Below the pieces are notes generated by a model. The model did no database searches and had not been told where the DNA came from. It saw only the letters and a program-made list of their open reading frames with translations. This document shows positions 35,050 to 59,745 of a DNA stretch of 64,000 nucleotides, piece by piece. The DNA is from a virus, in IMG/VR virus record IMGVR_UViG_3300036861_000995; one strand, written 5' to 3'. Within the stretch, counting starts at the first letter, position 1, and each line of letters opens with the position of its first letter. The translations under genes and the position numbers were made by a program.

Positions 35050-35704
35050 GCGAAACATGGCATCCTTTATATGGGACTGTAGGCGGTGCGGTAGGCGGGG
35101 GTGGTAGGGGGGTGGGCATGGGCGGGTAGAATGGGGATACCTGGGCCTGTAATATTTACCTTCTTCTAATAGTAATAAGAGGTGATACTGGTGATAGGGG
35201 TTCAGGACCTTATCTGACAAGGACTTGCGACGACACCACCATTCACCGACGTCACAGAAAAACGAAACGAGAAGCGTAATCGAATTGTAAAAAAATGTGA
35301 AAAGTGGCAATTGTGCAACGACCTGGACCACGCAAGGCCCGCCGGGGGTGTTCGATCTCTAGGAAAATCCTTCCAGTTCGGAAGCCTTTTCTCACTCGAG
35401 ACCAAAGGAGTTACGTCGCTCGGAAATCCTAAGGACGGCTCATTGGCATGGTATTTGAGTATGCCGCTTGCGTTACCATCCGCTCGGATGGTAACAGGCC
35501 TGGGACTAGCGCCGTGGCCGATCTTCGCCCCTTGCGATGCTGACGGCTCATGTCGTGCCAGGCCTTGGGAAGGAATGCTAGTCCGGCCCGATGTTTCGCG
35601 ATGAGTGACTCCTAGGGCAGGGCGAGGCCTCCATGGGCAGGGGGGAGGGGGTACTTCCCCCTCTCTTCCTCGCTGGCATCGACCCATCTCCAACTTCCGT
35701 TGCA
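35050..35704 (-). ncRNA. candidate large structured noncoding RNA in a ~1 kb low-GC island, transcribed from the CCGATATTAG motif at 35704-35717
   Basis: ~55% GC versus ~69% elsewhere; no GC3 bias in any frame; multiple perfect hairpins (e.g. 35472-35495 gttaccatcc/ggatggtaac); upstream promoter motif shared with four genes; flanked by terminator (36001-36043) and next gene's operator. Confidence 0.25.
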
Positions 35705-35717
35705 TTCCACTAATATC
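35704..35717 (-). promoter_or_regulatory. conserved motif copy 1 (minus strand CCGATATTAGTGGAATG)
   Basis: Member of 5-copy family CCGATAT(A/T)AG. Confidence 0.4.
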
Positions 35718-36000
35718 GGCCTTAGCGATACCGCCAAGGCCGATTTCGCCCGAGGAGCCGTAATGGGGGATTGGGGCCTATTGACGTTCTCTCCTTCCCT
35801 ATAGGCTCACTGCCAGGCTACTAGTAGCGGAGAGGGTACTGGGTCAGGAACAATCACCAATGGCGACTCCTCGAAATGGAGGAGAGAGACGCCAACTAGC
35901 ATTACCGAGCCCCGTTTTCCCTCCGTTTCCTCGCACTAGCCCCTGGTACACCACGGGCCCCCACTACCCCACAACGCTCGCCCTAGGCTCGCCAGACGAC

Positions 36001-36043
36001 CCAAAATGCAAGAAGGGGCTGGAGACCCAACGTCTCCAGCCCC
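36001..36043 (-). terminator. rho-independent terminator: 12-bp GC stem (GGGGCTGGAGAC/GTCTCCAGCCCC) then TTCTTGCATTTTGGG
   Basis: Read on minus strand downstream of 68-aa gene. Confidence 0.65.
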
Positions 36044-36063
36044 TCCCATGGGCGAGCTCGGCG

Positions 36064-36270
36064 CTAGACCAGGAACACGGGCACGCGTCCCTCGCCCCTG
36101 TCGCTCCGCTCCGTCTCCTCCTCGCGGGTCCGCATCCTCTTGATGCGCCGGCGCATGTCGAGCTCGGCCAGCACGGCCTGGCGCTCCGTGCGGTTCTGGG
36201 CTTCACAGAAGTCGATGTCCGCCAGCATCCGCTCGAGGTCTCGCGCGTCCCGGATCGTGTACTTGACCAT
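36064..36270 (-). CDS. small charged helical protein (68 aa, MVKYTIRDARDLERMLADIDF...)
   Basis: ATG with GGGAGCCTAGAC RBS motif and CCGATATAGTGG motif 39 nt upstream; followed by terminator. Confidence 0.55.
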   Translation of the reverse strand: MVKYTIRDARDLERMLADIDFCEAQNRTERQAVLAELDMRRRIKRMRTREEETERSDRGEGRVPVFLV

Positions 36271-36308
36271 GTCTAGGCTCCCTTGTGTGGTCGCACGATT
36301 GCGACGTC

Positions 36309-36320
36309 CCACTATATCGG
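36309..36320 (-). promoter_or_regulatory. conserved motif copy 2 (CCGATATAGTGG)
   Basis: ~39 nt upstream of ATG at 36270. Confidence 0.45.
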
Positions 36321-36472
36321 TCGGGCCCCCTGGAGGTTGGAGGAATCCTCCATTTTCCGAAGGCCGCGCGAACGCCCCCGCTGCAGCTACCGTCGCGCCC
36401 GCCTTGGGCCAGGCCTACGGGGCGGAGCGAGGAGCGAGAGTAGCAGAGCGACGATAGCCCGTCCTAGCGAGC

Positions 36473-36745
36473 TCACGACTCGTGCTCCTCGGATCCCTCG
36501 GATCCCTCGTCTCCCCATGCCTCTGGCGTTTCCCCGTTCGCGCCATAGGCCAGGCAATCCACGCACACTAGTAGGTGCCCGATCCTTTCGCCGTACATGT
36601 AATGCGCCGGGTACCTGTCTCCACTGAGACTCGACTCGCACACGTCGCATGACGACCAGGAGAAGCTCCCCTGGTCCGCAATGGCACGCGCAGTCTCTGG
36701 CTCCGGGTCCCATGCGAGAGCGATGGTCCATGCCAGTACATCAAT
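36473..36745 (-). CDS. possible TraR/DksA-like C4 zinc-finger protein (start uncertain)
   Basis: CDVCESS...(18)...CVDCLA pattern in C-terminal half of track ORF 36473..36970. Confidence 0.3.
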   Translation of the reverse strand: MDVLAWTIALAWDPEPETARAIADQGSFSWSSCDVCESSLSGDRYPAHYMYGERIGHLLVCVDCLAYGANGETPEAWGDEGSEGSEEHES

Positions 36746-37076
36746 AGTCTCGGGGACTTCTTTCCCGTGAGCCAGAGGAATCCGGAGTAGCTGCCCTCCG
36801 TTCGGATCCTCGGCCGCGAGAGGCGAGGATAACCCCTCGTTCGATGGTACTCCGCTGGAGCGCGCGTGTATGCACTCTGCGAGCTCTCCCTCGGGCGCCC
36901 GCGGATCGGACCGGCACTCAGAGCTGCAGCCCTGTGCCGACCTGGTCCGAGCAGAGCTCGGGCTGTTCACTCCCTACCCCGTCGGCACCCTAGCAGTACG
37001 GCCAGGATGAGCGCCAGGATTGCCGCCAGGGCGTACACCCCGGCTCCGAGGCGGTCGGGCGCGCGCTTCTGGAGAC

Positions 37077-37316
37077 TCATTCGGTCCTCCGACAAGCTCG
37101 AAGGCCGATCGCCTCCATCGCCTCCGCGTCCGAGCAATACAGGGGATTGGGCCCTCCCCGACTCTCGGGCAGACCGGCTCGAAGAGCATCCCCGCGCCTG
37201 GCCGAGAGCTCGAGGCGCGCGCATGTGGCCGCCTCGCCGAGCCTGCCGGCCGACAGCCACTCCCCGGCGGCCCTGGCCCACTCCATGCGCGCCTCCGCCT
37301 CCCGCGCCACGCGCAT
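37077..37316 (-). CDS. hypothetical small protein (~80 aa)
   Basis: Internal ATG of track ORF 37077..37418. Confidence 0.3.
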   Translation of the reverse strand: MRVAREAEARMEWARAAGEWLSAGRLGEAATCARLELSARRGDALRAGLPESRGGPNPLYCSDAEAMEAIGLRACRRTE

Positions 37317-37354
37317 CGCCTCCGCCCTCGGGCGCTCCCTCGGCTGGCGGTAGC

Positions 37355-37627
37355 TCACGGAGAACCTCTCGATCGAGCTCGCGCGAGTCTCTCGAGCTCC
37401 GCCACGGTCTGGACGCAAGGCCCGTGGTTCCCCCTCGCCAGGATCCGCGCTGCCTCAACGGTCCGAAATGGCCCGACTACGTAGACGGTTCCGGCTCGAA
37501 GATCCTCCGGAAGATCCGAGAGCGATTGGGGATCACGGGGTGCGCGGAAAAGGCGCCCAAGAGGCAGCTCGGGCCGCTCCGGATCCGGCCCCGCGCTCGG
37601 CATCGCGACGTAGAGGCGCCTCCTCAT
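37355..37627 (-). CDS. hypothetical small protein (90 aa)
   Basis: ORF in early-left operon. Confidence 0.3.
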   Translation of the reverse strand: MRRRLYVAMPSAGPDPERPELPLGRLFRAPRDPQSLSDLPEDLRAGTVYVVGPFRTVEAARILARGNHGPCVQTVAELERLARARSRGSP

Positions 37628-37833
37628 GACCCGCCTCCTTCTGGTCGCAGGAGCTCGAAAAACGACGCGAGAGCTTCGTCATATTCGGTTACCGCCTCGC
37701 GAAGGTCCTCCGCGTGGGCGCGGATCATCTCGAAGTCCCCTACGTGGGCCTGCAGCCGTCGTGCCGACCTGTGCGCAGTATCTCTTAGCGATCCTATCGC
37801 CTTCGACACTCGCACTATTTCTTGATTTTCCAT
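37624..37833 (-). CDS. hypothetical small helical protein (~69 aa, MENQEIVRVSK...)
   Basis: Internal ATG of track ORF 37624..37965. Confidence 0.35.
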   Translation of the reverse strand: MENQEIVRVSKAIGSLRDTAHRSARRLQAHVGDFEMIRAHAEDLREAVTEYDEALASFFELLRPEGGGS

Positions 37834-37841
37834 GCCTAAGC

Positions 37842-38270
37842 CTACGTCTTTCTCATCTTTGCCGCCCCCGGTCGCTCGACTGCCGTCGCCCAACTGGGTC
37901 CGACCCCGTAGCTCGGCCGCGGCCTGTAGCATCCCTGTCCCAGCCCCATTTCCAGCCGCCGGCACTCTAGCATCGCCTCAGCTAGAGATCGGTAGTATCC
38001 GCACCCGTAGTCAGCTCCGACTCGGGCCACCGTCCAACCGTCGGGGAACATCTCCACGGCGTCCCCCGGCACGAGGACGTAACGGTGCGCCAGGTCGTGA
38101 GCGAGGATGTTGTCCCCGCCCGCGAGCCGAGATGCGCTCGCCACGGCCCAGAGAACCTCGCCTCTGTACGGAACGGGCACGCACACGCTCCCCGCGGGAA
38201 CCGTGACCGTGCGAGCTAGCCCCCCGGCCTGCAGAGTGACGACTACCTCGCGAATTGTTCGAGCGCCCAT
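37842..38270 (-). CDS. hypothetical protein (142 aa)
   Basis: ORF in early-left operon. Confidence 0.4.
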   Translation of the reverse strand: MGARTIREVVVTLQAGGLARTVTVPAGSVCVPVPYRGEVLWAVASASRLAGGDNILAHDLAHRYVLVPGDAVEMFPDGWTVARVGADYGCGYYRSLAEAMLECRRLEMGLGQGCYRPRPSYGVGPSWATAVERPGAAKMRKT

Positions 38271-38271
38271 G

Positions 38272-38814
38272 CTAGCGACCCTCTCCGGCGGTGGCGGCCG
38301 AGGGGCCGCGCCACGTCGTCGAGTCCGACAGGTCGAATCCCTCGGGCAGCCCTAAGCCATCCGGTGGGTAGTTCACCAGGGTCTCGAGCGTTTCCCGCAC
38401 GTCCGCCCGCATGGCGTAGTAGGCCCGCGCGCCGACGTCCGCCCGGGCCTCGCCCGTCTCCTCCTCCAGCGCGTCCTCATTGTTGGACGCCAGTAGCGCG
38501 CACTTCGCCTTGTGGGTGTAGATCACGACGTCGCTCTGGTCGATCGTCTCGTGGAGCCACTGTTCCAGCGCATCCTCGTCCTCGAGCTCGCCCGAGAGAA
38601 TCTGCCCCAGCGCATCCTCGGTCACGTCCCGCACTCGCCCGTAGTACCAGGCGCGCAGCCGAGACGCGGCCAGCGAGAGGAGATCCTCCTCCCCGTGCTC
38701 GCTCGCGATCCGCTCGGCAAGTTGCGGACCCGGCGCCTCTGACCTGCGGAGGCGATCGAGGATCGTCTCGCGCTCCTCGTCCGATAGCTGTATGTGATAG
38801 TGTCTCGTTCCCAT
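38272..38814 (-). CDS. strongly acidic 180-aa protein; candidate DNA-mimic / anti-restriction-type protein (inference)
   Basis: Very high Asp/Glu content (EDEDALEQWLHETIDQSD, EDALEEETGE...); early operon; conserved GGGAGCCTAGAGC RBS motif and structured leader. Confidence 0.55.
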   Translation of the reverse strand: MGTRHYHIQLSDEERETILDRLRRSEAPGPQLAERIASEHGEEDLLSLAASRLRAWYYGRVRDVTEDALGQILSGELEDEDALEQWLHETIDQSDVVIYTHKAKCALLASNNEDALEEETGEARADVGARAYYAMRADVRETLETLVNYPPDGLGLPEGFDLSDSTTWRGPSAATAGEGR

Positions 38815-38844
38815 GCTCTAGGCTCCCTTCGTCCCTAGGCTCCC

Positions 38845-38878
38845 GCGGTAGGTGCCGCCCACCGGGGAGCCTAGACCT
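38845..38878 (-). promoter_or_regulatory. perfect 10-bp stem hairpin (CCGCCCACCG...CGGTGGGCGG) in the leader of the acidic-protein gene; the ~15-nt loop contains another GTCTAGGCTCC copy
   Basis: Read directly; three GGAGCCTAG copies between 38815 and 38870. Confidence 0.4.
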
Positions 38879-38936
38879 CGGTGGGCGGCCGGCTTCGGGT
38901 TTGACCCTTAGCCCTGTCGGCATCGTATCGTCTTGG

Positions 38937-39542
38937 TCAGGCCTCCGGCTTGCTCGAATCCTGCTTTTCCGGCGCTGGGTAGCGCTCGGGATTCAGCGAC
39001 CATGCCCCGAAGTCGCTCGACGCAACGCTCGCCTTGATCCAGCCCGGGAGCGAGACACCCGGAGGCAAGTCATCCGACAGACCGACCCCACTCCCGAGCG
39101 CTTGCATCGCCAGGCAGTGCGCGAAGCGCTCCCCGCCAGAATAGTAGGTGTGCAACGTCGCCGCGTACTCGATGGGGTGTAGTTTGCCGTGGGCGCCGGT
39201 GAAGCCGGCCGGTGGCGCGCACTCTGACGATGCGTCGCGAGCTCGCTCGTCGAACGCGTCCACGATCCGCCGCGCCTCCCTCTCCGCGTCCGGGTCCTGC
39301 ATGTAGAGGATGCCCTTCCCGTTGCATGTCGGACATCTCCTCTCGTCTAGGCCGACATCACCTAGATAGGTTCTCCCGTCGCATTCCGCGCAGAAAAGCC
39401 ACGAGAGAGGAGCTACGTCTTCCCAATCGCCCCCGCCCCCGGGCTTGTTTCCTTTGATCTCTCCCGACTCCACCCCATCCGCCCACGCGCACATGAATAG
39501 GGTCCGGGCAACGTCCTGAATGATCTCCTCTCGAGTGGCCAC
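38937..39542 (-). CDS. zinc-ribbon-containing protein (201 aa, CAECDG...CPTCNGKG)
   Basis: ORF with codon bias; CxxC...CxxC. Confidence 0.5.
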   Translation of the reverse strand: MATREEIIQDVARTLFMCAWADGVESGEIKGNKPGGGGDWEDVAPLSWLFCAECDGRTYLGDVGLDERRCPTCNGKGILYMQDPDAEREARRIVDAFDERARDASSECAPPAGFTGAHGKLHPIEYAATLHTYYSGGERFAHCLAMQALGSGVGLSDDLPPGVSLPGWIKASVASSDFGAWSLNPERYPAPEKQDSSKPEA

Positions 39543-39543
39543 G

Positions 39544-39816
39544 CTACAGCTCCTCCCCCGCGAGCACGCGGCATCCCGCCGTCGCCCGAGAGTACTCGTC
39601 GAAGTCCGAGACCCCGAGAGGCTCGATCCCCGCGAGCGACGCCAGCTTGTGGGCGAATAGGACGGAGATCGGGTGGCGCGCGAGCTCCTTAGTCCCGAGC
39701 TGCAGCTCCATCCTCAGGGCCATCAGGGCCTCCACGTACGACCGCGCGACTCCCGACACGTTGCACGCATCCTGTACCTGCAGCGCGTCCCGCGCCGCCT
39801 GCCTCACCTTCGACAT
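39544..39816 (-). CDS. first gene of leftward early operon (90 aa), possible small DNA-binding regulator (Cro/CI-like by position)
   Basis: ATG with GAAGGGAGCCTAGA RBS motif and CCGATATAGTGG motif 44 nt upstream; borders divergent regulatory region. Confidence 0.5.
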   Translation of the reverse strand: MSKVRQAARDALQVQDACNVSGVARSYVEALMALRMELQLGTKELARHPISVLFAHKLASLAGIEPLGVSDFDEYSRATAGCRVLAGEEL

Positions 39817-39859
39817 TCTAGGCTCCCTTCGTCTGGGCCGGGGAGTATCCCCCGACGAA

Positions 39860-40280: not shown

Positions 40281-40425
40281 CTATTCGGCATTCGGCACCC
40301 TCGGCCCCAGAATCTCCATTCGGCATTCGGCACCCTACGGTCGTAGGGGCGCAACGCTACCACGAATCAGCATTCGGCACTCGAGCAATACCTTAGTAAC
40401 TAGCATTTCGATCTACATTCGGCAC
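40281..40425. repeat. direct-repeat (iteron/operator) array: CATTCGGCAC x4 positions, two as 20-bp doublets (ATTCGGCATTCGGCACCCT)
   Basis: Copies at ~40283, 40317, 40371, 40416 in the divergent intergenic region upstream of the rightward operon. Confidence 0.6.
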
Positions 40426-41598: not shown

Positions 41599-41784
41599 AT
41601 GAGACCCCTACTCCGAGCCCGAGAGGCCGCCGTGCTCCTGTCGATCTCGCCGCGAAAGCTCTGGGAGCTCACCAATCGAGGAGTCATACCCTCGATCCGC
41701 ATAGGACGGTCCCTGCGCTACCGGCACGAGGACCTCCGCGCGTGGGCAGAGCGCCAGGCCAGCGAGAGGAGGAAGACGGGCTAG
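41599..41784 (+). CDS. xis: excisionase / AlpA-like HTH protein
   Basis: LLSISPRKLWELTNRGVIPSIRIGRSLRYRHEDLRAWAE is classic Xis/HTH_17; adjacent to integrase. Confidence 0.65.
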   Translation: MRPLLRAREAAVLLSISPRKLWELTNRGVIPSIRIGRSLRYRHEDLRAWAERQASERRKTG

Positions 41785-42116
41785 ACCCTCAGCGAGTACC
41801 GCGTCCCCCGGCGTTCTCCGGTTCTCCGGATCTTCTTGTCGCTCCGCAACCTGTTGAGAGTTGGACGGAGGATGTCGGGGGTCGCGCCTAGAGCCTCTCC
41901 GATCTCGCTCGCCGCCACGCCGTCCGGGCGAGTCTGCAGGAAGGCGATGATCGACTCCTCCGACGGGGCCGACTCGGCCCGTCGCGGAGAGCGAGAGCCG
42001 CTCTCGAACGACAGCATCCCCCTGAGCTCCTCCACTATGCTGCGCCTGACGGCGAGCGAGAGCTTGCCGGCGAACTGAGTGATCTCGTGCTGGATGTAGT
42101 CGTCTAATTTGTTCAT
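41781..42116 (-). CDS. winged-helix transcriptional regulator (111 aa), candidate repressor
   Basis: GGAGAAAAC RBS; C-terminal wHTH-like segment; between xis and int. Confidence 0.55.
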   Translation of the reverse strand: MNKLDDYIQHEITQFAGKLSLAVRRSIVEELRGMLSFESGSRSPRRAESAPSEESIIAFLQTRPDGVAASEIGEALGATPDILRPTLNRLRSDKKIRRTGERRGTRYSLRV

Positions 42117-42169: not shown

Positions 42170-43264
42170 ATGGCGTGGCTCTTCAAGCGGGACTCTAGGG
42201 GCCCCTACCTGGTGCGCTGGTACGACGAGCTCGGCCGAGTCAAGGAGCGCTCGTCGAGAACCACCGACCGAAGGGCGGCCGAGCGGATCGCAGCCCAGAT
42301 TCAGGCGAACGTCTCGCTGAGGCGCGAGGGCGTCGTCGATCCCGCCCTCGCTATGGTCGCGGAGGAGTCTCAGCGGCCCCTTCAGGAGCACGTCGACGAA
42401 TACCTCGCCCACCTCGAGCGCGGCCGGCGCTCGCCGCGAACGATCGCGGACGCGCGCCAGCACCTCGCGTGGCTCAGGGCGAGTACCCGTGCCACGCGCC
42501 TCTCCGACCTCACCCTCGACAAGGTGGAGCGTGCCCTGGGCCTTCTTCAGGCGGAGAACCTCTCCGCCAGGACGTTCAACCACAAGGCCGGATCGGCCAG
42601 GTCTTTCCTCAACTGGGCGGTCAAGGCCGGCCGACTCGAGCGAAACCCGCTTCGGCACCTGCCGCACCTCTCTGAGTCCCAGGACCGTCGCCGCGAGCGC
42701 CGACCGCTCGACGACGACGAGCTGGAGCGCCTCTTCGAAGTCGCTCGGGCCAGGGGCCGGGAACTCTGGTACGCCCTGGCCTACTGGGCCGGCCTCCGAC
42801 TCTCGGAGTTGAGGCGCCTCGCGTGGGAGGACCTAGACCTGGCGAGGGGAGTCCTGGTGGTGAGTCAGGGCAAGGCGCGGAGGGTGGATGAGGTTCCGGT
42901 CCACCCAGAGTTGGTCAGACTTCTAGAGGAGAGAGGCCGCGCCTTGCGGGGACCAGTCTTCCGGACGGCCGTCACCAATGCAACCAGAGTGAGGGATTTC
43001 CGCGCGGCCGGAATCGGAGTCAGGGACGGCCGCGTGGCCGACCTCCACTCCCTCCGAGTCACCCTGGCGACGAACCTGGCCCGCGCCGGCGTTCAGCCCC
43101 AGGTCGCCCAGCGCCTCCTGCGCCACTCCGACTACCGGACCACGGTCCGCTTCTACACCAAGCTCTCCTCCACGGATACTCGCGGGGCTCTCTCCCAGTT
43201 GCGAGTTCCTCACGCTAGACGACACCTACGGGAGCACGGTTCGGCGCGAGATGCTACATCCTAA
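42170..43264 (+). CDS. int: tyrosine recombinase / phage integrase
   Basis: N-terminus MAWLFKRDSRGPYLVRW; C-terminal catalytic HS-LRHT...Y region (LLRHSDYRTTVRFY); immediately followed by tRNA-derived sequence. Confidence 0.9.
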   Translation: MAWLFKRDSRGPYLVRWYDELGRVKERSSRTTDRRAAERIAAQIQANVSLRREGVVDPALAMVAEESQRPLQEHVDEYLAHLERGRRSPRTIADARQHLAWLRASTRATRLSDLTLDKVERALGLLQAENLSARTFNHKAGSARSFLNWAVKAGRLERNPLRHLPHLSESQDRRRERRPLDDDELERLFEVARARGRELWYALAYWAGLRLSELRRLAWEDLDLARGVLVVSQGKARRVDEVPVHPELVRLLEERGRALRGPVFRTAVTNATRVRDFRAAGIGVRDGRVADLHSLRVTLATNLARAGVQPQVAQRLLRHSDYRTTVRFYTKLSSTDTRGALSQLRVPHARRHLREHGSARDATS

Positions 43265-43307: not shown

Positions 43308-43356
43308 TGGAGGCGGCAGTGGGATTCGAACCCACGATAGCGGATTTGCAATCCGC
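43308..43356 (-). tRNA. partial tRNA-Cys(GCA): anticodon stem-loop, variable loop, T-arm, acceptor 3' strand and CCA only; probable attP/att core
   Basis: Minus strand reads GCGGA-TTGCAAA-TCCGC TATC GTGGG-TTCGAAT-CCCAC TGCCGCC T CCA; no matching 5' acceptor strand or D-arm upstream. Confidence 0.55.
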
Positions 43357-43471
43357 GACCTCAGCGACGCAACTCCCATTCTGTAAACGACTTACGAAGC
43401 GACTCTATTCGATCCCCACGCCTAACGACATCTACTTGAAGCATCGCTCCTCATCGAATAGCACAGTCGGC

Positions 43472-46051: not shown

Positions 46052-46261
46052 CTACGGCCTCCTCAGGATGAGCAGCACCGATCGGTCGCCAAGCCTCTCG
46101 ACGGACACCACTTCCTGCCGAGTCGGTCGTCCGTAGGGTCGCGGCGACTCCGGGGTCGGCGCTGAATCCTCCCGGCGGCAGCCGAACGCGAGGAACGCGA
46201 GCACCAGCGTCGCCAGGCAGAGCAGGACGAGCGAGGTGAGGGATCGTAAGCGATTGTTCAT
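46052..46261 (-). CDS. small secreted/lipoprotein-like peptide (69 aa) coupled to serine recombinase (ATGA overlap)
   Basis: Hand translation MNNRLRSLTSLVLLCLATLVLAFLAFGC... Confidence 0.35.
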   Translation of the reverse strand: MNNRLRSLTSLVLLCLATLVLAFLAFGCRREDSAPTPESPRPYGRPTRQEVVSVERLGDRSVLLILRRP

Positions 46262-46887
46262 GCGGCCCTCCGGACCATCGAGCGCACGACCTTGGCCGAC
46301 CACCGGGCCCCGGTGACGGTGGCGTGTCCCTCGTCCGACAGCCGGGCGGCGATCGCGCGCAGCGACAGGCCCTGACCTCTCAGCTCCGCTGCGCGCGCGG
46401 CGGCGACAGGCGAGGAGGTCTCTCGGTAGGAGACGCGCAGGCCCCGCCGCGCCATGTGTCGCAGGACCTCGCTCGTGCGCTCCGCGATCTGGTCGCGCTC
46501 GAACTCGTCCAGAGCCGCGCGGAATCGGAAGAACAGTTTGCCGGTTGCGGTCGAGGTGTCGATCTTCTCGTTCAGCACGACGAGGTCGCAGCCGTCCGCC
46601 TCGAGCCGCGCGGCGAGATCGAGCATCCCTCTGGTGGAGCGCGCCACCCGGGACAGGGAGTAGGCCACCAGGGCCCCGCCCCTGCCGCACAGGGCCAGGG
46701 CTCGCGTCAGGCCTGGGCGGTCCATCCTGGTGCCCGTGCTCTCGTCGGGCTCGACCACGAGCTCCCGGCCGTCCCCGTGCAGCTCGTGCCAGGCCCGGAT
46801 CTTAGCCTCCTGGGCCTCCAGCGACATCCCGTCCCTGGCCATCTCCTCCTTGGAGACTCTCACATACCCGACGACTGTCTTCACCAT
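46258..46887 (-). CDS. serine recombinase (resolvase/invertase family, ~209 aa)
   Basis: N-terminal catalytic VVGYVRVSKEEMARDGMSLEAQ; C-terminal HTH; start at internal ATG MVKTVVGY. Confidence 0.8.
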   Translation of the reverse strand: MVKTVVGYVRVSKEEMARDGMSLEAQEAKIRAWHELHGDGRELVVEPDESTGTRMDRPGLTRALALCGRGGALVAYSLSRVARSTRGMLDLAARLEADGCDLVVLNEKIDTSTATGKLFFRFRAALDEFERDQIAERTSEVLRHMARRGLRVSYRETSSPVAAARAAELRGQGLSLRAIAARLSDEGHATVTGARWSAKVVRSMVRRAA

Positions 46888-46965
46888 GACGAACTCTATC
46901 GACCAGTCGAGGGCTCGGACTGCACCATCCTCCATATTCCCACGACGAGGAGGACCGACGGTAGG

Positions 46966-48075: not shown

Positions 48076-49385
48076 GACTCGAGTAGTCCGAACACGTCGA
48101 CCCGCGGGTCGGTCGGCTGCTGGCTAGTCGCGGCGGAGTACCAGCACAGCAGGTCTACTCCCGACGCCTCGGCCGTCCTGCGGATGCCTCGGTAGAGCTC
48201 TCCCATCCACTCCGTTCGCTGCGCGTCGATCGCCGCTCGGCGCCAGGGGTGGGAGCCGGCTATGAGCGACTGCCCGGCCTCGTAGCATGCGAAGTAGGGC
48301 ACGTCGTAGGCTTGGCGGATCTCGTCGTGGCGCTTCAGCGGGCCACCGTTCTCTCCGATGTCCTCCAGACGAGCGAGGCAGCTTGAGCGTAGCTCGTCCT
48401 GCGTCGGAATGGCCCCAGTGGCCTCCCACTCCTCCTTGTGGGCCTTCAGGGGAGTCACGTAGAGCGCCGGGCCGGCGAGGTCGGGGGTAATTCCGCGAAC
48501 CTGGAGAGCAGAGAGTATTCGGTCCAGGTGGGACGGCACAGCCAGTTGACCGCCGACGAACAGGTAGTAGTTCTTCTGCCCCAGAAGGTCCGGCTCGCCG
48601 AAGACTCGGTCGGCGACGCGCTTCATCATCGTGATCTCGTCCGCGGCGCGGTCATACCAGGTATAGCCCGAGATTGAGTAGCCGTCTCGCAGCCAGCGTT
48701 GGACCGGGAACGCAGAGTTCCAGAGCTCGTTCCCGTACTCTAGGATCGGAGGTCGGCTCAGCATCCCGTCGATCGACCGCAGTAGCTCCTCGAGTCGGCG
48801 CTCGTACTCCTCCGCGGGTAGATCGTAGCGAGGGGGCGCGTTCCACCAGAGCGAGCACTGGAGGATCCTCGCAGCGTGGGCTTGCATTGTGGCGGCCATT
48901 CCTCGGTCTCCGCCCTGCAGCGCGTCGCTGGAATTCACGCTGCTCGCGGACCAGTCAGTCTTTCGATTTACCATCGACCAGTCGAGCGTGCGCAGGACTC
49001 TGGGTCGAAAGTAGGCCAGAGCCTCCACGGACGGTCGATGCCACCAGCCTGTACTCTCGGACCGAGGATAGAGGCCGCGAGGCCTCTCGATCCCGCGCCA
49101 GTACAGGTAGTAGGCCTCGCCCTGGCGCATCCGTACCGACCCCCCGTAGCCGGACGCGATCTCGAGGTCCGGCATGGTGCCCTCCATGTCGCCGAACACC
49201 CGGACGCCGTTCCAGCGACCGTCGTCGACGGGCCAGCCGTCCGCGCCGAGCGTGGAGGGCTCGCCTGTCGGGGTGCCGTCTTCTCGGAAGACCTCGAACA
49301 TCCTCCCGCGCCTCACCGGGTTCGCGAAGAGGGGAAGTCTCGAGGTCCAGCCGCAGAAGGACGGGTTCAGGCCGTAGTGCGTCAT
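48024..49385 (-). CDS. putative TIM-barrel glycoside hydrolase (clan GH-A-like, ~453 aa)
   Basis: Start MTHYGLNPSF; candidate acid/base motif YGNELWN and later CYEAGQ; Trp/Tyr-rich. Confidence 0.4.
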   Translation of the reverse strand: MTHYGLNPSFCGWTSRLPLFANPVRRGRMFEVFREDGTPTGEPSTLGADGWPVDDGRWNGVRVFGDMEGTMPDLEIASGYGGSVRMRQGEAYYLYWRGIERPRGLYPRSESTGWWHRPSVEALAYFRPRVLRTLDWSMVNRKTDWSASSVNSSDALQGGDRGMAATMQAHAARILQCSLWWNAPPRYDLPAEEYERRLEELLRSIDGMLSRPPILEYGNELWNSAFPVQRWLRDGYSISGYTWYDRAADEITMMKRVADRVFGEPDLLGQKNYYLFVGGQLAVPSHLDRILSALQVRGITPDLAGPALYVTPLKAHKEEWEATGAIPTQDELRSSCLARLEDIGENGGPLKRHDEIRQAYDVPYFACYEAGQSLIAGSHPWRRAAIDAQRTEWMGELYRGIRRTAEASGVDLLCWYSAATSQQPTDPRVDVFGLLESCDLSRTLPKARAARGD

Positions 49386-51014: not shown

Positions 51015-51032
51015 CCACTATTACTATATCGG
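51015..51032 (-). promoter_or_regulatory. conserved motif copy 4 (CCGATATAGTAATAGTGGA), 2 nt from ATG
   Basis: Read directly. Confidence 0.45.
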
Positions 51033-53223: not shown

Positions 53224-53247
53224 GTCGACCTGGAGAATACCACGATA

Positions 53248-53799: not shown

Positions 53800-53804
53800 G
53801 ACGA

Positions 53805-54362
53805 CTAGTGCCCCTCCATGATTACGGGCATTATGGCCCCGCGCTCCGGTCCGCCACCCGCCGGGGAGACCTCCGCAGGCTCGGGACCCGCCCTGCCCTT
53901 CTCGTCCGCCACGAACCGAATCCTCAGCTCGTCGGACCCGAGAGCGCGCGCGAGTCGGTAGAGCGCCTCCGCGTCGAGTGTGATCTCGACGGAGCCCGCC
54001 AGGCTCTCCTCCGCGAGCTGAATGAGGAGCTCGGCGCTCGGCACCTCCAGGGTAGAGCTGGCGGAAGGGGGGAATGACATCCGAGGACCGTCGACGCCGC
54101 TCGTCGCTACCTGCCTGCCGTCTGGCTCCAGTCTCAGGGTCCCGGTCCCCCGCGAGCCTCGAGCCGCGTGCTCCCAGGCGCGCGGCGAGATCAGGGTTCC
54201 GTCGGCCAGGTTCTCACCGGGCTCGATGCCCGCGGGTACCGAGGCGGCTATCGTGCCGTCCGTGGCCAGGATCCTGCCTTCGGCGACTCTCAGGACGTTG
54301 AGCCGGAGCTCCGCGTCCTCGCCGGCGGCGAGGTGGAGCTTGTGTCGCTTCTCGACCCTCAC
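53805..54362 (-). CDS. hypothetical protein (185 aa)
   Basis: ORF with codon bias. Confidence 0.45.
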   Translation of the reverse strand: MRVEKRHKLHLAAGEDAELRLNVLRVAEGRILATDGTIAASVPAGIEPGENLADGTLISPRAWEHAARGSRGTGTLRLEPDGRQVATSGVDGPRMSFPPSASSTLEVPSAELLIQLAEESLAGSVEITLDAEALYRLARALGSDELRIRFVADEKGRAGPEPAEVSPAGGGPERGAIMPVIMEGH

Positions 54363-54922
54363 AGGCCGATTCCCAGGCTGACCAGGAACGCGCCGGAGTC
54401 CAGGTCGGTGTCCTCGTCGTCGTCCCCGAGCTCCTCCTCAACGCCGGCCGTTCGGCGGTAGGAGAACCCGAGCAGGAGCCCGCTCGAGAGCGCGAACTCG
54501 ACCCCCGCCCCCACGTACACGCCGGGGATGACGGCCGTCGCCGAGGACGCCTCGTCGTCGAGGTGGATGCGCTGAATCGTGACGCCGAGGCCGGCGAACG
54601 GTCGGTAGAAGTCGGAGCCGGAGTCGACGTAGAGGCGCGTTCCGACGTCCAGCTCGATCCGGCTTCCGGTCAGGTCCGCGGCTCCGAGGTCGTCCTGGAT
54701 CCTCGTCCCGCGCAGCGCCATGTCCGCGACCCAGCCGAGAGGTCGAGTCGAGTCTCGGAAGCTCAGGCCGACCCCCGCCGTCTGCTGGGAGCTCACGCCC
54801 CCCTCCTCGGTGAAGTCCGCTACGCCAGCCTCCGCGCGGGCCTGAAGGTGTCCAGGGGAGCTGCAGCCCGTCGGTACGGCCGTCAGCAGCAGGGCGATCA
54901 GCTCGTGTCTCTCCACTCTCAT
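54359..54922 (-). CDS. outer-membrane beta-barrel (OmpA/OmpW-like) protein with signal peptide
   Basis: N-terminal signal (LIALLLTAVPTGC); alternating hydrophobic beta-strand pattern; Gly/aromatic-rich. Confidence 0.45.
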   Translation of the reverse strand: MRVERHELIALLLTAVPTGCSSPGHLQARAEAGVADFTEEGGVSSQQTAGVGLSFRDSTRPLGWVADMALRGTRIQDDLGAADLTGSRIELDVGTRLYVDSGSDFYRPFAGLGVTIQRIHLDDEASSATAVIPGVYVGAGVEFALSSGLLLGFSYRRTAGVEEELGDDDEDTDLDSGAFLVSLGIGL

Positions 54923-55008: not shown

Positions 55009-55302
55009 TCAGGATCCGCGCGCGAGCTTCTTGGAGCGGCGCCTGACCTCTCGGCGAGTCCTGCCGAGGGCTCGGGCGAGCTGAAGATCAGGAAGCACTC
55101 CCATGTTCCTCCGGAGGAAGGCGTCCTCGGGAGCAGTCCACGGAAGGCCCCTTCTGGGATCGTCGGGCTCGACGATCCCCAGCTCCCCGGCCACGAATCG
55201 AAGCTCCACCGGGGACATCTCGAGGGACTCGGCGAGCACCTCCAGCGGCGCTCTGCCCCACCACTCCCTCAGGTAGCGGACTTCTTGGTAGTCGAGAGGC
55301 AC
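55009..55302 (-). CDS. hypothetical small protein (97 aa)
   Basis: ORF. Confidence 0.3.
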   Translation of the reverse strand: MPLDYQEVRYLREWWGRAPLEVLAESLEMSPVELRFVAGELGIVEPDDPRRGLPWTAPEDAFLRRNMGVLPDLQLARALGRTRREVRRRSKKLARGS

Positions 55303-55763
55303 TCTGACTCGAACTCCTCGAGGGTCCTGCCGGACTCGGTAGTCCAGCTCGCGAAGACCTTTCCCCTCCCGTCGTGAAGCTTTCCGTCGGAGTCGATGGG
55401 TCCCAGTCGCCGAAGGCGTACCGCCAGGCCCTGCAGCCGAGAGTCGCGCATCGAGGGTCCTCTGGCCATGCGCACGGCGGACAGGGCGGCTTCCGCCGGT
55501 GAGTCGGCAGTGAACACGCAGGTCTCGTACTCGATGAAGTCGTCCAGTCCAGTAGCGAAGGTCGCCTCGAAAACGTGCGACCTCCTGAAGCCGATGCGCT
55601 CCAGGAACGCGGGCACGTCCGGCTCAAGACCTACCTCGCAGGCCCCGAGGAAGAGGACAACAAGCTGGTGGCCCTCCTTGGGTCTGATGTCGCCGGCGGT
55701 CGAGCGCAGGCGCTCGACGCAGTACACGTCGCCCTGCCGAGGAATGTTGCTAGAAGTGGTCAT
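55269..55763 (-). CDS. hypothetical protein (164 aa)
   Basis: ORF with codon bias. Confidence 0.4.
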   Translation of the reverse strand: MTTSSNIPRQGDVYCVERLRSTAGDIRPKEGHQLVVLFLGACEVGLEPDVPAFLERIGFRRSHVFEATFATGLDDFIEYETCVFTADSPAEAALSAVRMARGPSMRDSRLQGLAVRLRRLGPIDSDGKLHDGRGKVFASWTTESGRTLEEFESECLSTTKKSAT

Positions 55764-58116
55764 CGGTCCTCATCTCCTGAACCGTCTCGAGCTGTCCGCC
55801 CCAGTTGAAGGAGCCGCCGAACAGCTCGTTCCAGCGCTGTCGGGCACGCTCTATGGACGGGAGCATGTACACGCGCGGTCGGTCGACAGACCGGATCCTC
55901 CCGTCGGGACCGACGGAATCGACTCGCCTACCGAGCTGGCCGCGCCTGCAGCCGGCGCGCTCGAGCAGCTTGGTCAGTCGGACCCTGCTGCAGCGCTGCC
56001 CGCGCCCCCACCCGAGCACGTAGGACTGGAAGTCCAGGGCGAGCTCCTCGCAGGTCAGCCACTCAGGCCACCCGCGACCGGGCGCTGCCTCCCCGGAGTA
56101 GAGCTTGGAGTGCCACCACTCCTCCTCCGGCGACAGCGAGTGCTCCTTCTGCTCCTGGAGGGCCTCCGTGCCCGGGACCACTCGGGGATTGAAGGACGCT
56201 ATGTCGAGGCTCAGCAGGTAGTGCAGCAGGGCCTCGCGCCCTCCCGCCCTCATCTGCTCGTTCAGGGGCCCAAAGAACGTCCCATCCTGCAGCTTGTCGC
56301 TGGACACGTCCAGCACCAGGAATCGGCGCTCGTGCCTGCCGGCAGGGACGACCCAGTCGCTGTTCGTCGCCATGATGATGTGCAGGCAGTTTCGCCCGGA
56401 CTCGGTGCCGAGGAACTTGCCCTCGAGCGTCAGCAGCTCCTCCGTCACGAGCCCCTTCAGCACCGCCTCGTGCCGCTTGTCCCCGGCGTAGAAGGCCTCG
56501 TCCGCGAACAGGACCACGGTGTCTCGCAGGTGTAGGTTGAACTGCCCCACCAGGTGGATCGGGTTCGTGCACGGCATGAAGTGGCGACCGAAGAGCGATC
56601 CGAAGTGCTTGGTGAACTCGCCCTTCCCGACGCCGCGCTCGCCGCGCATGACGAGCGCCACCTGGCCGGGCTCCCCGGGCATCTGCACCGCTCGCGCCAT
56701 CCAGGAGGTTACGTACCCGTAGAGCCTCTCGTCGCCCCGGCAGATGTTCTCTCGGACGTGGCGCAGGTACAGGGAGCAGTCACCCGGACGAGCCTCGCAG
56801 GCGAACCCGCGCCACAGGTTGTAGCAGCCGGGCGGGTCCTGGCCGGGAGCGAACAATACCCTCTCGTAGTACCGTCGGCGGGGATGAGAGAGCCACCAGT
56901 CGCCGAGGGTTCTGAGCTTCTTCTTCTCGGCGTCGGGCTGCTCGGGCGTCCTGTTGGAGTAGCGGTTGCGGATGTCCTCGAAGGTGGCGTAGGAGACGTG
57001 CGGGCGGCCGAGGAACTCGTCGAAGGACTCCGAGAGGACGCGGCACTTTCCGCCGAGATCGCCTATGACCGCGTGTCGCCTGTTCATCTCCGACAGGAGC
57101 GGGTCGGAGCAGTGCTCGCGCGCGTGCTCGATCTGCTGGAGAGCGTAGCGCTCGGCGCGCGCGCCCTTCTCGCGGACCGACTCGGATATGCCGAAGTCGG
57201 GGTCGGTGATGATCGAGTAGATCACCTCGTCCGGCACCTCGCGCCTCAGCAGCTCGCAGACGACGTAGAAGAGCGGCTCCGAGCGCGAGGGCCAGCGCTT
57301 CGGGTCGTCTGGGTCCTTCCCCACGTTGATGACTACCTTGAGGAAGTCTGGAACGTCGAGCTCGTCGAGCGACCGCAGTCGACGCACGTTGCCCGTGTCG
57401 ACCACCGGCCTCGTCTCTAGGTCCGACAGGCCCCCGTCGCCGATCTGCACGCGGGGCGCGGCGGCGAACTTCGACAGGGGCAGGGCGTGGGCCGGATCCG
57501 ACGACAGGACCACCGCCATCCTCGGAACGCGCCCGGCCGACCGCTTGCGCTCGTCGGGCCAGTTGATCGTCCCCGGCAGGCGCATGATCCGGTCGACGTT
57601 GTGGCAGGAGTCGGCCCCGAACGTGATCTCGAGCTGCTGGTTGTAGCGCTTCGCCTCCTCGTAGAGCTCCGGCCTGCCGTCTATTCGGACCGGGCGAGAG
57701 AGTCGCCAGAATGCCTGAATCCCGCCGCCGGAATCGACGATGACGGACGGACGAGGAACAGTGGCGGGGAACTCTTCCCCGAAGAGTCGCTGCAGGCGAG
57801 CGCGCTCCTCGGGGAGCGGCTTCTGCTTGTCGGGGTCCACGTCGACGTGGAGGTACTCCATCGCCGCGATGTCCTCGCGGCTGGGCTTCTTCGCGAGTGG
57901 CCTGGCCGTCGCGTTGACGGTCCAGTAGACGTTTCGTCCGGCCTGGTTCCAACGCTCGATCCAGTCGGCGGCCTGCGTGCCCTCTCCCGCCGCGAAGCTG
58001 CGAGTCTCTATGTCCCCGGCCGCCCCGTCGGGCTGGATCGCCACGAGGACCCAGAACCCGCTCGGTCGTACCGACCTCAGGAAGCGGACGGAATCGGAGG
58101 GGTCGGGTCTGAGCAT
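55750..58116 (-). CDS. bifunctional primase-polymerase (PrimPol) / P4-family SF3 helicase
   Basis: N-terminal Prim-Pol domain; C-terminal NTPase with Walker A GERGVGKGEFT and D5-like region. Confidence 0.85.
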   Translation of the reverse strand: MLRPDPSDSVRFLRSVRPSGFWVLVAIQPDGAAGDIETRSFAAGEGTQAADWIERWNQAGRNVYWTVNATARPLAKKPSREDIAAMEYLHVDVDPDKQKPLPEERARLQRLFGEEFPATVPRPSVIVDSGGGIQAFWRLSRPVRIDGRPELYEEAKRYNQQLEITFGADSCHNVDRIMRLPGTINWPDERKRSAGRVPRMAVVLSSDPAHALPLSKFAAAPRVQIGDGGLSDLETRPVVDTGNVRRLRSLDELDVPDFLKVVINVGKDPDDPKRWPSRSEPLFYVVCELLRREVPDEVIYSIITDPDFGISESVREKGARAERYALQQIEHAREHCSDPLLSEMNRRHAVIGDLGGKCRVLSESFDEFLGRPHVSYATFEDIRNRYSNRTPEQPDAEKKKLRTLGDWWLSHPRRRYYERVLFAPGQDPPGCYNLWRGFACEARPGDCSLYLRHVRENICRGDERLYGYVTSWMARAVQMPGEPGQVALVMRGERGVGKGEFTKHFGSLFGRHFMPCTNPIHLVGQFNLHLRDTVVLFADEAFYAGDKRHEAVLKGLVTEELLTLEGKFLGTESGRNCLHIIMATNSDWVVPAGRHERRFLVLDVSSDKLQDGTFFGPLNEQMRAGGREALLHYLLSLDIASFNPRVVPGTEALQEQKEHSLSPEEEWWHSKLYSGEAAPGRGWPEWLTCEELALDFQSYVLGWGRGQRCSRVRLTKLLERAGCRRGQLGRRVDSVGPDGRIRSVDRPRVYMLPSIERARQRWNELFGGSFNWGGQLETVQEMRTDDHF

Positions 58117-58526
58117 CCGGAGAGGAGTTGGAGGAGCCCGGCCCTGCAGTCCGCCTTGCCGTGCCAGGTCGCGGTCGCCGCGAGGGTCAGCGCCCTTCTA
58201 GTCGCTCGCCCAATCATCTTCGCCGCGGTCGCCCCCTGGAGCAATAGGTAGTCTCGATCCTCGCAGGCCTCAAGCAGGAGCCAGGTCTCTCCTCCCGCCC
58301 TGGTTCGACGGATGTGGAACACCCTCTGCTGCGGCGTGAAGTGGTCGACGCGGACGATCGTCTGGTGCCGAGCGGGCCAGCGCTCGATGCACTTCAGCTC
58401 GATCCAGCCCTCGACGTAGTTCACGTCGGGAGTCCCGGGCAGTATCGGATTCTCGACGGATATCGCTCCGAGAGGCTCCAGGGCCTCGACTACGGACTGG
58501 CGCAGAGCGCCCTCCCGCCTTCCCAT
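58077..58526 (-). CDS. PD-(D/E)xK nuclease (VRR-NUC/Hjc-like, ~149 aa)
   Basis: GTPDVNYVEGWIELKC matches PD...ExK; start MGRREGAL coupled to MazG stop. Confidence 0.5.
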   Translation of the reverse strand: MGRREGALRQSVVEALEPLGAISVENPILPGTPDVNYVEGWIELKCIERWPARHQTIVRVDHFTPQQRVFHIRRTRAGGETWLLLEACEDRDYLLLQGATAAKMIGRATRRALTLAATATWHGKADCRAGLLQLLSGCSDPTPPIPSAS

Positions 58527-58894
58527 CAGAACGCCTTGCCGTGCTTCACTGGCCGAGTGAGGTTGAACTCGTGCTTGCGGAGCGCGACCTCCATTAGGTC
58601 GATCCCGCGCCGCTCGGCGAGGTCGAACAGCCTGAGCAGGATGTCCCCCATCTCCTCCTCCTCGCGCGACAGGGGGATCGGCTCTCGACCTTTGAGGCTG
58701 CCGTCCCGCCACTTGCCGCACTGGGCGGTCGGATCCTCGCGGTAAGCCTCCAGGAGTTCGGAGACCTCGGAGTGGATCAGGGCGACCTTGGAGGCCAGGA
58801 GCTCGGGCGCGTCCTCGCCGTCCAATTCGGGGCAGGGCCAGAATCCCTTGGCGATGGAGTTATCGTAGGCGGCCCGCTGGAGGGGATGAGTCAT
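58526..58894 (-). CDS. MazG-like nucleotide pyrophosphohydrolase
   Basis: EVSELLEAY...EEEEMGDILLRLFDLA helical-pair motifs. Confidence 0.6.
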   Translation of the reverse strand: MTHPLQRAAYDNSIAKGFWPCPELDGEDAPELLASKVALIHSEVSELLEAYREDPTAQCGKWRDGSLKGREPIPLSREEEEMGDILLRLFDLAERRGIDLMEVALRKHEFNLTRPVKHGKAF

Positions 58895-59068
58895 AGGGAG
58901 AGAGTCGAAAGGAGGCGATGAGGAACAGTGGACCTGCGAGCACCTGAAAGTTCAGGTGACCGAGGTCTCGGTTGACGGCTATCCCGGCCACGAGCTGGCC
59001 GAGGTCTACTCCGACGCAGAGCTGGCCGAGCTGGGTTCGTGCGATCCTGAGGAGAAGGCGCGTGGACA

Positions 59069-59413
59069 TCAGGCGATCCTCCGTATCGTCACGCCTGTCT
59101 GCTCGGCTCGCAGGATCATGTCCGCGGTGCCACTGCCGCCGGGGAAGGCGACGACGAGGTCGGGCCTCACGTCTACCAGCATCCGCTGATTTCTCATCGG
59201 GCCGGCAAGTCGACCGTAGGCCTTCCAGTCGGCGTAGAAGGTGCCGGTCTCGACGCCCATCTCACGGGCCCACTCCTTGGCGAGCGCGTCGGCGCCCGAG
59301 GCGCCGCCCTGTGCGACTAGATCGATCTTTCGTTCCTGGTGCAGAGCGTCCAGGGTCTCGAAGACTCGCTGACGGTTCTGGTAGGCGCGACCGCCGCAGA
59401 CGATGATCTTCAC
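59069..59413 (-). CDS. DUF2493 / SLOG-family Rossmann-like protein (~114 aa)
   Basis: KIIVCGGRAY ... VVAFPGGSGTADM; GTG start with GGAGAGG RBS. Confidence 0.5.
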   Translation of the reverse strand: MKIIVCGGRAYQNRQRVFETLDALHQERKIDLVAQGGASGADALAKEWAREMGVETGTFYADWKAYGRLAGPMRNQRMLVDVRPDLVVAFPGGSGTADMILRAEQTGVTIRRIA

Positions 59414-59733
59414 TTGAACCTCTCCATCGCCTTGCGCACCCAGGCGCGCACGGCGCGCGCCGTCTCGGAGCCGCCGGCCTGGATCACCTCGCGCAGGTTC
59501 TCGCGGACCTCGCCCAGCGTCCAGCAGGCGTCCGGGCCCTCGTTTGCCAGCGCCATGCCAAGAGCGCAGCATGTCGGGCAGGTGGTGCTCTCCTCAAGGG
59601 GCTCGCCGCGCGACTCAATGTATATGAAGCGTCGGTACTTCTCGCCCGGCTCGATGGTGCGCCCGCACTCCTCGCAGCGGCGGGGCTTCCGAGCGCGGCG
59701 GATCGAGTCGCCGAGGATCTGGCCATGGCACAT
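59410..59733 (-). CDS. zinc-finger protein (107 aa, MCHGQILGD...CEECG...CPTCC); paralogue of 49381-49549
   Basis: ATG preceded by GCCGATATAGCC motif that spans the polA stop codon. Confidence 0.5.
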   Translation of the reverse strand: MCHGQILGDSIRRARKPRRCEECGRTIEPGEKYRRFIYIESRGEPLEESTTCPTCCALGMALANEGPDACWTLGEVRENLREVIQAGGSETARAVRAWVRKAMERFK

Positions 59734-59734
59734 G

Positions 59735-59745
59735 GCTATATCGGC
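59735..59745 (-). promoter_or_regulatory. conserved motif copy 5 (CCGATATAG, overlapping polA stop codon)
   Basis: Read directly. Confidence 0.3.

Follow-up and report, generated by a model that had tools for sequence, protein, structure and literature searches.

The DNA considered here is a 64,000-nt stretch (hereafter the window) of the virus record IMGVR_UViG_3300036861_000995 in IMG/VR, and the element under study is a short sequence, CCGATAT, that recurs on its minus strand and appears to be the -10 part of a composite promoter module of ~55 bp common to three related phages. The window has a G+C content of 68%, with nearly all genes located on the minus strand. Positions 3–34936 are occupied by the packaging, head and tail module (terminase, Mu-like portal, tape measure and tail tube), and the region 36064–64000 contains replication and accessory genes (polA, primase, SSB, phosphoesterase and methyltransferases) together with a lysogeny patch encoding a tyrosine integrase, an excisionase-like helix-turn-helix protein and a serine recombinase. 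Given the tyrosine integrase and an attP-like 3' fragment of tRNA-Cys, the phage is temperate; it is also siphovirus-like. Megablast of two window segments identified no near-identical phage among GenBank phages, and the best protein identities to isolated phages (Pseudomonas, Shewanella and Rhizobium siphoviruses) are ~45%.

The recurrent core and the module around it

CCGATAT occurs exactly five times in the window, its first C lying at 35719, 36320, 39871, 51032 and 59744, and in agreement with the original prediction all five copies are found on the minus strand, which is the coding strand at each of them. Their cores have the consensus CCGATATAG(TGG), from which the copy at 35719 departs by a one-base insertion and that at 51032 by an insertion of six bases. 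The formula first proposed, CCGATAT(A/T)AG, is not literally right, as four sites read CCGATATAG and one carries an extra T; the distances and sequences had been given correctly, and the first coordinate range was ~2 nt off, its true extent being 35706–35719 (-). Placement at gene starts holds for four of the copies: a called start codon follows each of them within 45 nt, and such zones are estimated to make up ~4% of the sequence; the fifth (35719) is situated in a non-coding island.

The count of the bare 7-mer is unremarkable (5 observed vs 2.5 expected). CCGATATAG was observed four times against 0.068 expected under an order-3 Markov model (p 8e-7) and, with its reverse complement, is tied as the second most over-represented 9-mer, while CGATANAGT was observed five times against 0.71 expected, a count reached by none of 100 shuffles. 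Allowing ≤3 mismatches, the 12-mer is found as often as by chance, and weaker copies of the core by itself are thus not enriched. The placement of the copies on the coding strand only and at gene junctions cannot be chance.

The original prediction covered the 12-nt core only, the upstream half of the module and the further members at 46902 and, probably, 62459 having been missed. A repeat search (family D15) found the sites at 36320, 39871 and 51032 to be alike in register over 35 nt, with an A/T patch ending in TTCC and CCGACC-like bases 14 nt before CCGATAT in common, and a permutation test of the 45 nt upstream gave p 0.002 for this trio and 0.03 for all five copies. In addition, the 16-mer GGAAAATGGAGGATTC upstream of 36320 recurs inverted, as GAATCCTCCATTTTCC, at an equal distance from 39871. 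The order of elements in the module is A/T patches (GGAAAAT near -54 to -49 and GGATT near -46 to -41), a -35-like CCGACC at -36 to -31, 14 nt, CCGA and the hexamer TA(T/G)AGT, often followed by GG; the spacer to the hexamer is 18 bp, of which CCGA forms the last four bases.

To identify the module in other phages, relatives with terminases of 61–78% identity were retrieved from a large protein collection and the contigs of six of them were compared with the window. A scan of the closer relatives by CGATAT, TATAGT and TAGTGG misses the module, and a gapped pattern reveals it as CCGATAGAGT. By this pattern, L061 (terminase 61% identical) and L063 (63%), which are phages from other metagenomes than the window, have three copies each, all intergenic and on the coding strand. 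One L063 site, GGAAATACGGAATTGGCTCCGACC-N14-CCGA-TAGAGT-GGAGCGTCGG, can be aligned base for base with the window site at 36320, GGAAAATGGAGGATTCCTCCAACC-N14-CCGA-TATAGT-GGGACGTCGC. Three contigs at 68–73% identity hold late-region DNA only and are uninformative on the module.

A motif search over the phage genome and its relatives had been proposed along with the original prediction. Such a search was made with a profile (R2) trained solely on the six L061 and L063 sites and run over the whole window with filters off (128 kb); as it was trained on the relatives only, its result is independent of the window's own copies. It recovers 36320, 51032 and 39871 below an E-value of 0.01, ranking them first, second and fourth in the 128 kb (Table 1), and all four matches below that value are on the minus strand. 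R2 also matches (E 0.006) an upstream-half-only copy, GCGGAATTACCCCCGACC, inside an open reading frame (ORF) at 48467–48496 (-), with no -10 element after it.

The motif had been called phage-specific, which is correct in so far as a small related group shares the module; a profile that included the window copies (R1) detected nothing in ~30 more distant loci. Protein-seeded scans of viral, genome and metagenome collections returned distant relatives only, in which the CCGATAT matches are in-gene chance occurrences. Exact patterns searched in IMG/VR yielded one unrelated contig of 43% G+C for CCGATATAGTGG...GGGAGCC and none for CCGATATAGTGGNNCGTCG, and CGACY-N14/15-CCGATATAGT gave 76 single chance matches, one of them being a coding repeat in the contig L073.

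Five window sites and the six sites of the relatives were combined in a position table. All 11 are on the coding strand; one of them spans the polA stop codon and the other ten are intergenic. Bases C-15, G-14, T-12 and A-11 are invariant, and A-13 and T-7 are each present in 10 of the 11. At -10 there are six T and five G, with A-9 in 8/11 and G-8 in 9/11, and the hexamers found (TATAGT, TAGAGT, TAGGAT, TATGCT and TATCGT) conform to TANNNT, from which two window sites deviate, namely 59744 (TATAGC) and 35719 (TATTAG in register). With G-17 in 9/11 and C-16 in 8/11, the string GCCGATA is present in 8–9 of the 11 sites. The -35-like block is conserved at C-36 (10/11), C-35 (9/11) and C-32 (11/11), and further upstream A-51, G-53, G-46 and T-42/-41 are conserved where UP-element subsites lie; the 14-nt spacer is not conserved across sites.

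Other candidates were considered and rejected. GNTAKAGT inside genes (37964, 50585 and 52685) and CCGATAGAGTCG at 22463 have neither upstream similarity nor a following start codon and were put down to chance; the latter, at 22463–22474 on the plus strand, is antisense in a head-module gene and is probably a chance occurrence.

Possible readers of the module

We consider it probable that the module represents a set of promoters of the sigma-70 family at which the host RNA polymerase acts, most likely with its primary sigma factor. It would drive non-structural (early or middle) genes of the phage, with transcription starting 6–8 nt after the hexamer. The combination of TANNNT and G-14 corresponds to the contacts of sigma regions 2 and 3, which points to a sigma-70-family -10 element and not to a fixed operator. 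In this respect the suggestion that the embedded TATAGT resembles a sigma70-type -10 element fared well, as across three phages T-12 and A-11 are kept at every site and T-7 at all but one, with variation at -10. The host polymerase is the likely reader because neither a Sigma70 nor an RNA polymerase domain was found in the ~60 window ORFs scanned; the precomputed Pfam lists of the relatives also contain no Sigma70.

A number of known promoters resemble the module. Middle and late promoters of Thermus phages are of the extended -10 type and are comparable to it, and leaderless-rich bacteria provide a parallel to those module promoters that abut start codons. Among the primary-sigma promoters of high-G+C bacteria, those of Corynebacterium glutamicum sigma-A have a -35 element TTGNCA and an extended -10 element GNTANANTNG (PMC3917453), all six specified bases of which GATATAGTGG fits; G-14, T-12, A-11 and T-7 are conserved across the 11 sites, with a -35 that is weakly consensus-like, and the module differs in that it also conserves CC at -16/-15 and A-13 and has CCGACC in place of TTGNCA. 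There is also a likeness to -10/GGGA basal promoters, with their strong -10 and G-14, GG(G/T) discriminator, weak -35 and some leaderless transcripts; GGGA after the hexamer is the optimal discriminator (PMC3526302) and is present at 36320. Unlike these and the Thermus phage promoters, the module lacks TG at -15/-14 and possesses a conserved -35-like element and upstream A/T patches. These resemblances are no host assignment.

Several observations weigh against promoters read by a primary sigma factor. The CCGA tetramer and the G preceding it show conservation equal to that of T-12 and A-11, which primary-sigma contacts do not require. The -35-like CCGACC shares only GAC with TTGACA, at a spacing of 18 bp, and a scan for E. 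coli-type consensus promoters gave no match at the module sites. The string GCCGATA(T/A) is also a -10 box of the sigma-28 type (PMC12784957). No terminator was found before 51032 or 59744, which would make these internal promoters, and the hairpins that can form at the 5' ends of the predicted transcripts are not better than those of shuffled sequence (z -0.1 and -0.9). The site at 59744 has C at -7, its distance from the ATG is too short for it to serve that gene, and it keeps CCGATATAG across the polA stop codon.

In Bacillus sigma-D and epsilon-proteobacterial FliA promoters the box is (G)CCGATAT. The present promoters could be read by a group 3 sigma factor of the sigma-28/FliA kind, either of the host or encoded by the phage in the ~9 kb of its 72.9-kb JGI metagenome contig that lie outside the window, with GCCGATA as a composite -10 and CCGACC as the -35. 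We regard this as unlikely. Sigma-28 factors (FliA, SigD, WhiG) recognise TAAA-N15-GCCGATAA, with GCCGATAT as a variant of the -10 element; the core string GCCGATA, found in most of the 11 sites as given above, is identical and the distance to the upstream element is similar, CCGACC lying 13 nt upstream of GCCGATA vs a 14-nt gap between the sigma-28 elements. At Pseudomonas fliC, (-15)GCCGATAA(-8), seven of whose eight bases are matched, is paired with (-36)TCTAAAG(-30) (PMC12784957). Moreover, a primary sigma would not be expected to read CC where TTGACA has TT. However, the sigma-28 -35 (TAAA/TCTAAAG) is absent from all 11 sites, which have CTCCGACC-like bases there instead, the eighth base of the box is T or G and never A, and A-9, G-8 and T-7, present in 8, 9 and 10 of the sites, lie outside the sigma-28 element and fit TANNNT. 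It is because of the missing -35 and this conserved A-G-T that the primary sigma is ranked above a sigma-28-like factor. There is also no link to flagellar genes, it would be unusual for early genes of a phage to depend on a flagellar sigma, and the scan of window ORFs and relatives' Pfam lists, as noted, gave no Sigma70 domain. There is, further, a small chance of a promoter class specific to the phage group and its hosts, in which a sigma factor combines a sigma-28-like -10 (GCCGATA) with a different -35 (CCGACC), or in which a dedicated factor acts on the upstream 16-mer, found in either orientation. Were the host a planctomycete with a dimorphic life cycle, reading by a FliA-like sigma would tie early transcription of the phage to the motile stage of the cell.

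Contigs from sister samples provided strain variants at 94% (L147), 91% (L148) and 97.7% (L151/L152) identity to the window. The 36320 site is identical in L150–L152; as the surrounding 750 nt are also unchanged, this gives no information. In L151/L152 the 35719 copy reads CCTATGCTAGGGGA (CCTATGCTAGGGGAATG), with four of 13 bases changed within a cluster of 12 substitutions in 62 nt and the CCGATAT identity lost. The hexamer there is now TATGCT, keeping TA...T six bases before an unchanged ATG. This change, an observation of low power, would agree better with a decaying copy or with a generic -10 element than with an operator recognised by its sequence. The same two contigs equal the window over 36508–35756 and 35495–35133, and in the 260 nt between (35496–35755, including the 35719 copy) there are 25 differences, of which 23 are substitutions and two are 1-nt deletions; this stretch is a mosaic or hypervariable patch.

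The loss of the 35719 core with retention of that at 36320 marks the former as dispensable as a specific binding site, and this bears on the alternative that the core is chiefly the site of a phage regulator, such as an immunity repressor or a stoperator-like site of the kind found in Cluster A mycobacteriophages, which would silence lytic transcription of the prophage, with likeness to a -10 element being secondary. The temperate nature of the phage, with its tyrosine integrase and attP-like fragment, would agree with such sites. Cluster A stoperators are near-identical asymmetric 13-mers, more than 20 across the genome, bound by a monomeric repressor of the L5 gp71 type (PMC9283540); like them, the present sites are short and asymmetric, have one orientation with respect to transcription and lie in short intergenic spaces or over start or stop codons. 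CC and GG flanking TATA form a weak pseudo-palindrome, 59744 keeps CCGATATAG despite its poor promoter placement, and the upstream 16-mer occurs in both orientations at equal distance, as a protein-binding site would. We nevertheless hold a primary operator function to be improbable. The sites number 5–7, they are embedded in a longer promoter-like module, and across phages the core varies just where a -10 element tolerates it and is fixed where one needs it. Candidate regulators searched against Pfam, PHROGs and PDB sequences matched neither an L5-type repressor nor anything else, and a divergent repressor could be missed in this way. An early 111-aa winged-helix protein (41781–42116) would be a candidate to bind the core or the upstream 16-mer. 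The operator half of the original proposal (promoter or operator) is therefore disfavoured by the variation pattern as the main function, and could stand as an added role. The coding strand of the 35-kb structural module contains no module sites.

It is highly improbable that the copies are functionless relics of duplicated DNA or a chance cluster. The chance-level 7-mer count, the decay of 35719 in sister strains and the half copy at 48467–48496 would agree with this, and it is contradicted by the 9-mer enrichment, by the coding-strand-only placement at gene junctions and by the fact that at 61–63% terminase identity the module is conserved and its 14-nt spacer is not. A T7-type promoter, for which the plus-strand reading CCACTATA had been considered in the original prediction, was rightly dismissed there: no gene for a single-subunit RNA polymerase was detected among the window ORFs scanned, the sites differ in their plus-strand bases (-17 to -8) upstream of CACTATA, and no plus-strand genes follow.

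The preferred sigma-70-family promoters would be ordinary in kind, with an exact sequence not previously described. They provide a testable consensus of ~55 bp for uncultivated temperate phages whose closest isolates share only ~45% protein identity, and the overlap of the TANNNT hexamer with the GCCGATA box makes the choice of sigma factor experimentally decidable.

Individual sites and the genes behind them

The window sites and neighbouring features are listed in Table 1. The sites at 36320 and 39871 are predicted to be promoters with leaders of 33–38 nt that end in the Shine-Dalgarno (SD) block AAGGGAGCCTAGA. From P36320, transcription would start near 36304 and drive an SD-led 68-aa gene, after which an intrinsic terminator with a 16-pair stem and a T-rich tail would close the transcription unit. 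P39871, with a predicted start near 39855, would head an operon beginning with a 90-aa gene, and it is located in a divergent region adjoining the lysogeny module. A divergent placement of 36320 was dropped because the 319-aa plus-strand ORF at 36866–37825 (a public call) has codon-position GC of 0.64/0.72/0.69 and is apparently an artefact of high G+C.

Table 1. Module sites and neighbouring features of the window; E-values are those of profile R2.
Feature	Position (strand)	Upstream elements	-10 region and downstream	Start codon	R2 E-value
P36320	36309..36359 (-)	GGAAAATGGAGGATTC 36358-36343; CCAACC 36340-36335	CCGA 36320-36317; TATAGT 36316-36311; GGGA discriminator; CCGATATAGTGG, then 38 nt to ATG	ATG 36270	2e-5
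P39871	39860..39908 (-)	GAATCCTCCATTTTCC 39908-39893; CCGACC 39891-39886	CCGA; TATAGT 39867-39862; CCGATATAGTGG, then 43 nt to ATG	ATG 39816	0.009
P51032	51014..51065 (-)	GCGGATTTTCC; TCGACC 51053-51048	CCGA; TATAGT 51028-51023; AATAGTGGA; core reads CCGATATAGTAATAGTGGA-ATG	ATG 51013	0.004
P46902 (new site)	46885..46941 (-)	GGGAATATGGAGGAT	TCGA 46902-46899; TAGAGT 46898-46893; tcgtc	ATG 46887 (serine recombinase)	1.2
Partial copy 59744	59735..59764 (-)	CCGACT 59764-59759	CCGA; TATAGC 59740-59735; CCGATATAG-CC-ATG; CCG ATA TAG = last two polA codons and stop	ATG 59733	2.4
Degenerate copy 35719	35706..35719 (-)		CCGATATTAGTGGA-ATG; possible -10 GATATT, 6 nt before ATG	ATG 35705	
Candidate site 62459	62446..62461 (-)		GG-TAGAGT 62459-62454; ctagggc	ATG 62446 (125-aa gene)	
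Intrinsic terminator	36011..36047 (-)				
Non-coding island	34937-36063				
Hairpin between 201-aa and 180-aa genes	38812-38940 (-)				
Repeats in divergent region	40289-40425 (-)				
Integrase gene	42170-43264 (+)				
tRNA-Cys fragment	43308-43374 (-)				
Sulfatase-domain protein gene	27749-29074 (-)				
187-aa lipoprotein-like protein gene	54359-54922 (-)				

At a second group of sites the start codon follows the hexamer by 5–9 nt with no SD sequence: 51013 (9 nt), 46887 (5), 62446 (7) and position 2253 of L061 (5). The messenger RNAs from 51032 and 46902 (and 62459) would begin at the start codon or ≤3 nt from it. P51032 is followed by a 92-aa gene of the DUF6378 family, whose ATG is the first possible start of the ORF and whose Pfam domain begins at residue 3; transcription is predicted to start at 51016–51013, leaving a leader of 0–3 nt. 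The leaderless expression proposed in the original prediction is plausible for this gene, and it does not hold at 35705 and 59733.

The best leaderless case, as judged from the sequence, would be the serine recombinase (resolvase) at 46887. The N-terminus from this ATG is MVKTVVGYVRVS, with the catalytic-serine motif, and the homologous resolvase of L061 is preceded by CCGA-TAGAGT-tcggc-ATG. The start of this gene (46258–46887, -) is most likely ATG 46887, and not 46842 (a crude gene call) or GTG 47037 (the longest ORF), which corrects the gene start. The candidate at 62459 consists of the -10 part only, with no upstream similarity, and is probably a further leaderless promoter. These phages are predicted to place some of their genes directly at transcription starts.

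The site at 59744 is a partial member of the family. It overlaps the final polA codons P-I-stop (stop 59738–59736), T-7 is replaced by C, and the -35-like bases encode the conserved P-D of the PolA C-terminus. Leaderless transcription of the downstream zinc-ribbon gene is geometrically impossible, as the hexamer ends 1 nt before its ATG and no start site can precede it. With GGAG 11 nt upstream and the polA stop 2 nt upstream, coupled translation suffices for this gene. It is unlikely that the site is located at a gene junction by chance.

The copy at 35719 is a decaying or weak member, which falls below detection by R1 or R2 at E≤10 and lies downstream of the terminator. Leaderless expression at its ATG is contradicted by the flat codon-position GC of the ORF (0.56/0.59/0.52), which is non-coding, and by loss of the motif in L151/L152. 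The 1.1-kb non-coding island around it precedes the packaging genes, and a block of CACCTC, an A/T-rich stretch and a C-rich run (~35230–35090) within it recurs at the matching place in L061 (~8400–8500), L063 (~7450), L068 (80–170), L069 (470–580) and L070 (610–700). This block may mark a cos/pac site or act as a late promoter.

Host and neighbouring sequences

Every organism-named homologue of the integrase (44–53% identity) belongs to a Planctomycetes/Planctomycetota metagenome-assembled genome (MAG), and public gene calls place a sulfatase-domain protein in the virion module, as is also the case in L061. On account of the integrase homologues and the sulfatase, the host may be a planctomycete. 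The 187-aa protein has a lipoprotein-like signal (…PTGC) and, by public annotation, an outer-membrane beta-barrel domain, which suggests a host with an outer membrane; this protein and the planctomycete-MAG homologues make an actinobacterial host improbable. If the host is a planctomycete, the module would be among the first candidate promoter elements for a poorly studied phylum and of use in annotation and as genetic parts. Nothing usable was found in the planctomycete promoter literature.

The tRNA-Cys was called by ARAGORN next to the integrase gene and is tRNA-like only from the anticodon arm to the CCA end, its 3' half lying at 43308–43356. It looks like the attP core for integration into a host tRNA-Cys gene, and it is uninformative on host identity. 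A search of the window against Rfam gave no match.

Some further sequences were noted close to the promoter sites. A start-associated block, (A)AGGGAGCCTAGA, reminiscent of the start-associated sequences of Cluster K mycobacteriophages, is found directly before the starts at 36270, 38814 and 39816 (36271–36283, 38815–38845 and 39817–39829; -), with a further copy, GGGAGCCTAGG, at 38845–38835; GGGAGCCTAG was observed five times vs 0.075 expected. The gap between the 201-aa and 180-aa genes can fold into a long hairpin (-59 kcal/mol, z -3.1, matched by 0/200 shuffles) whose 5' arm carries TCTAGGCTCCC, the complement of an SD block. In the fold this pairs with the copy at 38845–38835, and an alternative pairing is with the GGGAGCCTAGA block directly before the 38814 start, so that the predicted structure may act in translational or processing control. 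GTGCCGAATG occurs four times, twice in the longer form GGGTGCCGAATGCCGAAT, in the divergent region that separates the early operon from the genes on the lysogeny side; these copies are candidate operators or iterons.

The relative L070 begins (1–100) with three tandem 35-nt units, GGCAGGCTCGACCAGGGTAGTGGGCTGGCCCAGGG, each with CGACC and TAGTGGG, which may be related elements or an assembly artefact. Finally, tandem 63-nt (21-codon) repeats occur at 25068–25830, inside a 391-aa gene of the structural module (24784–25959).

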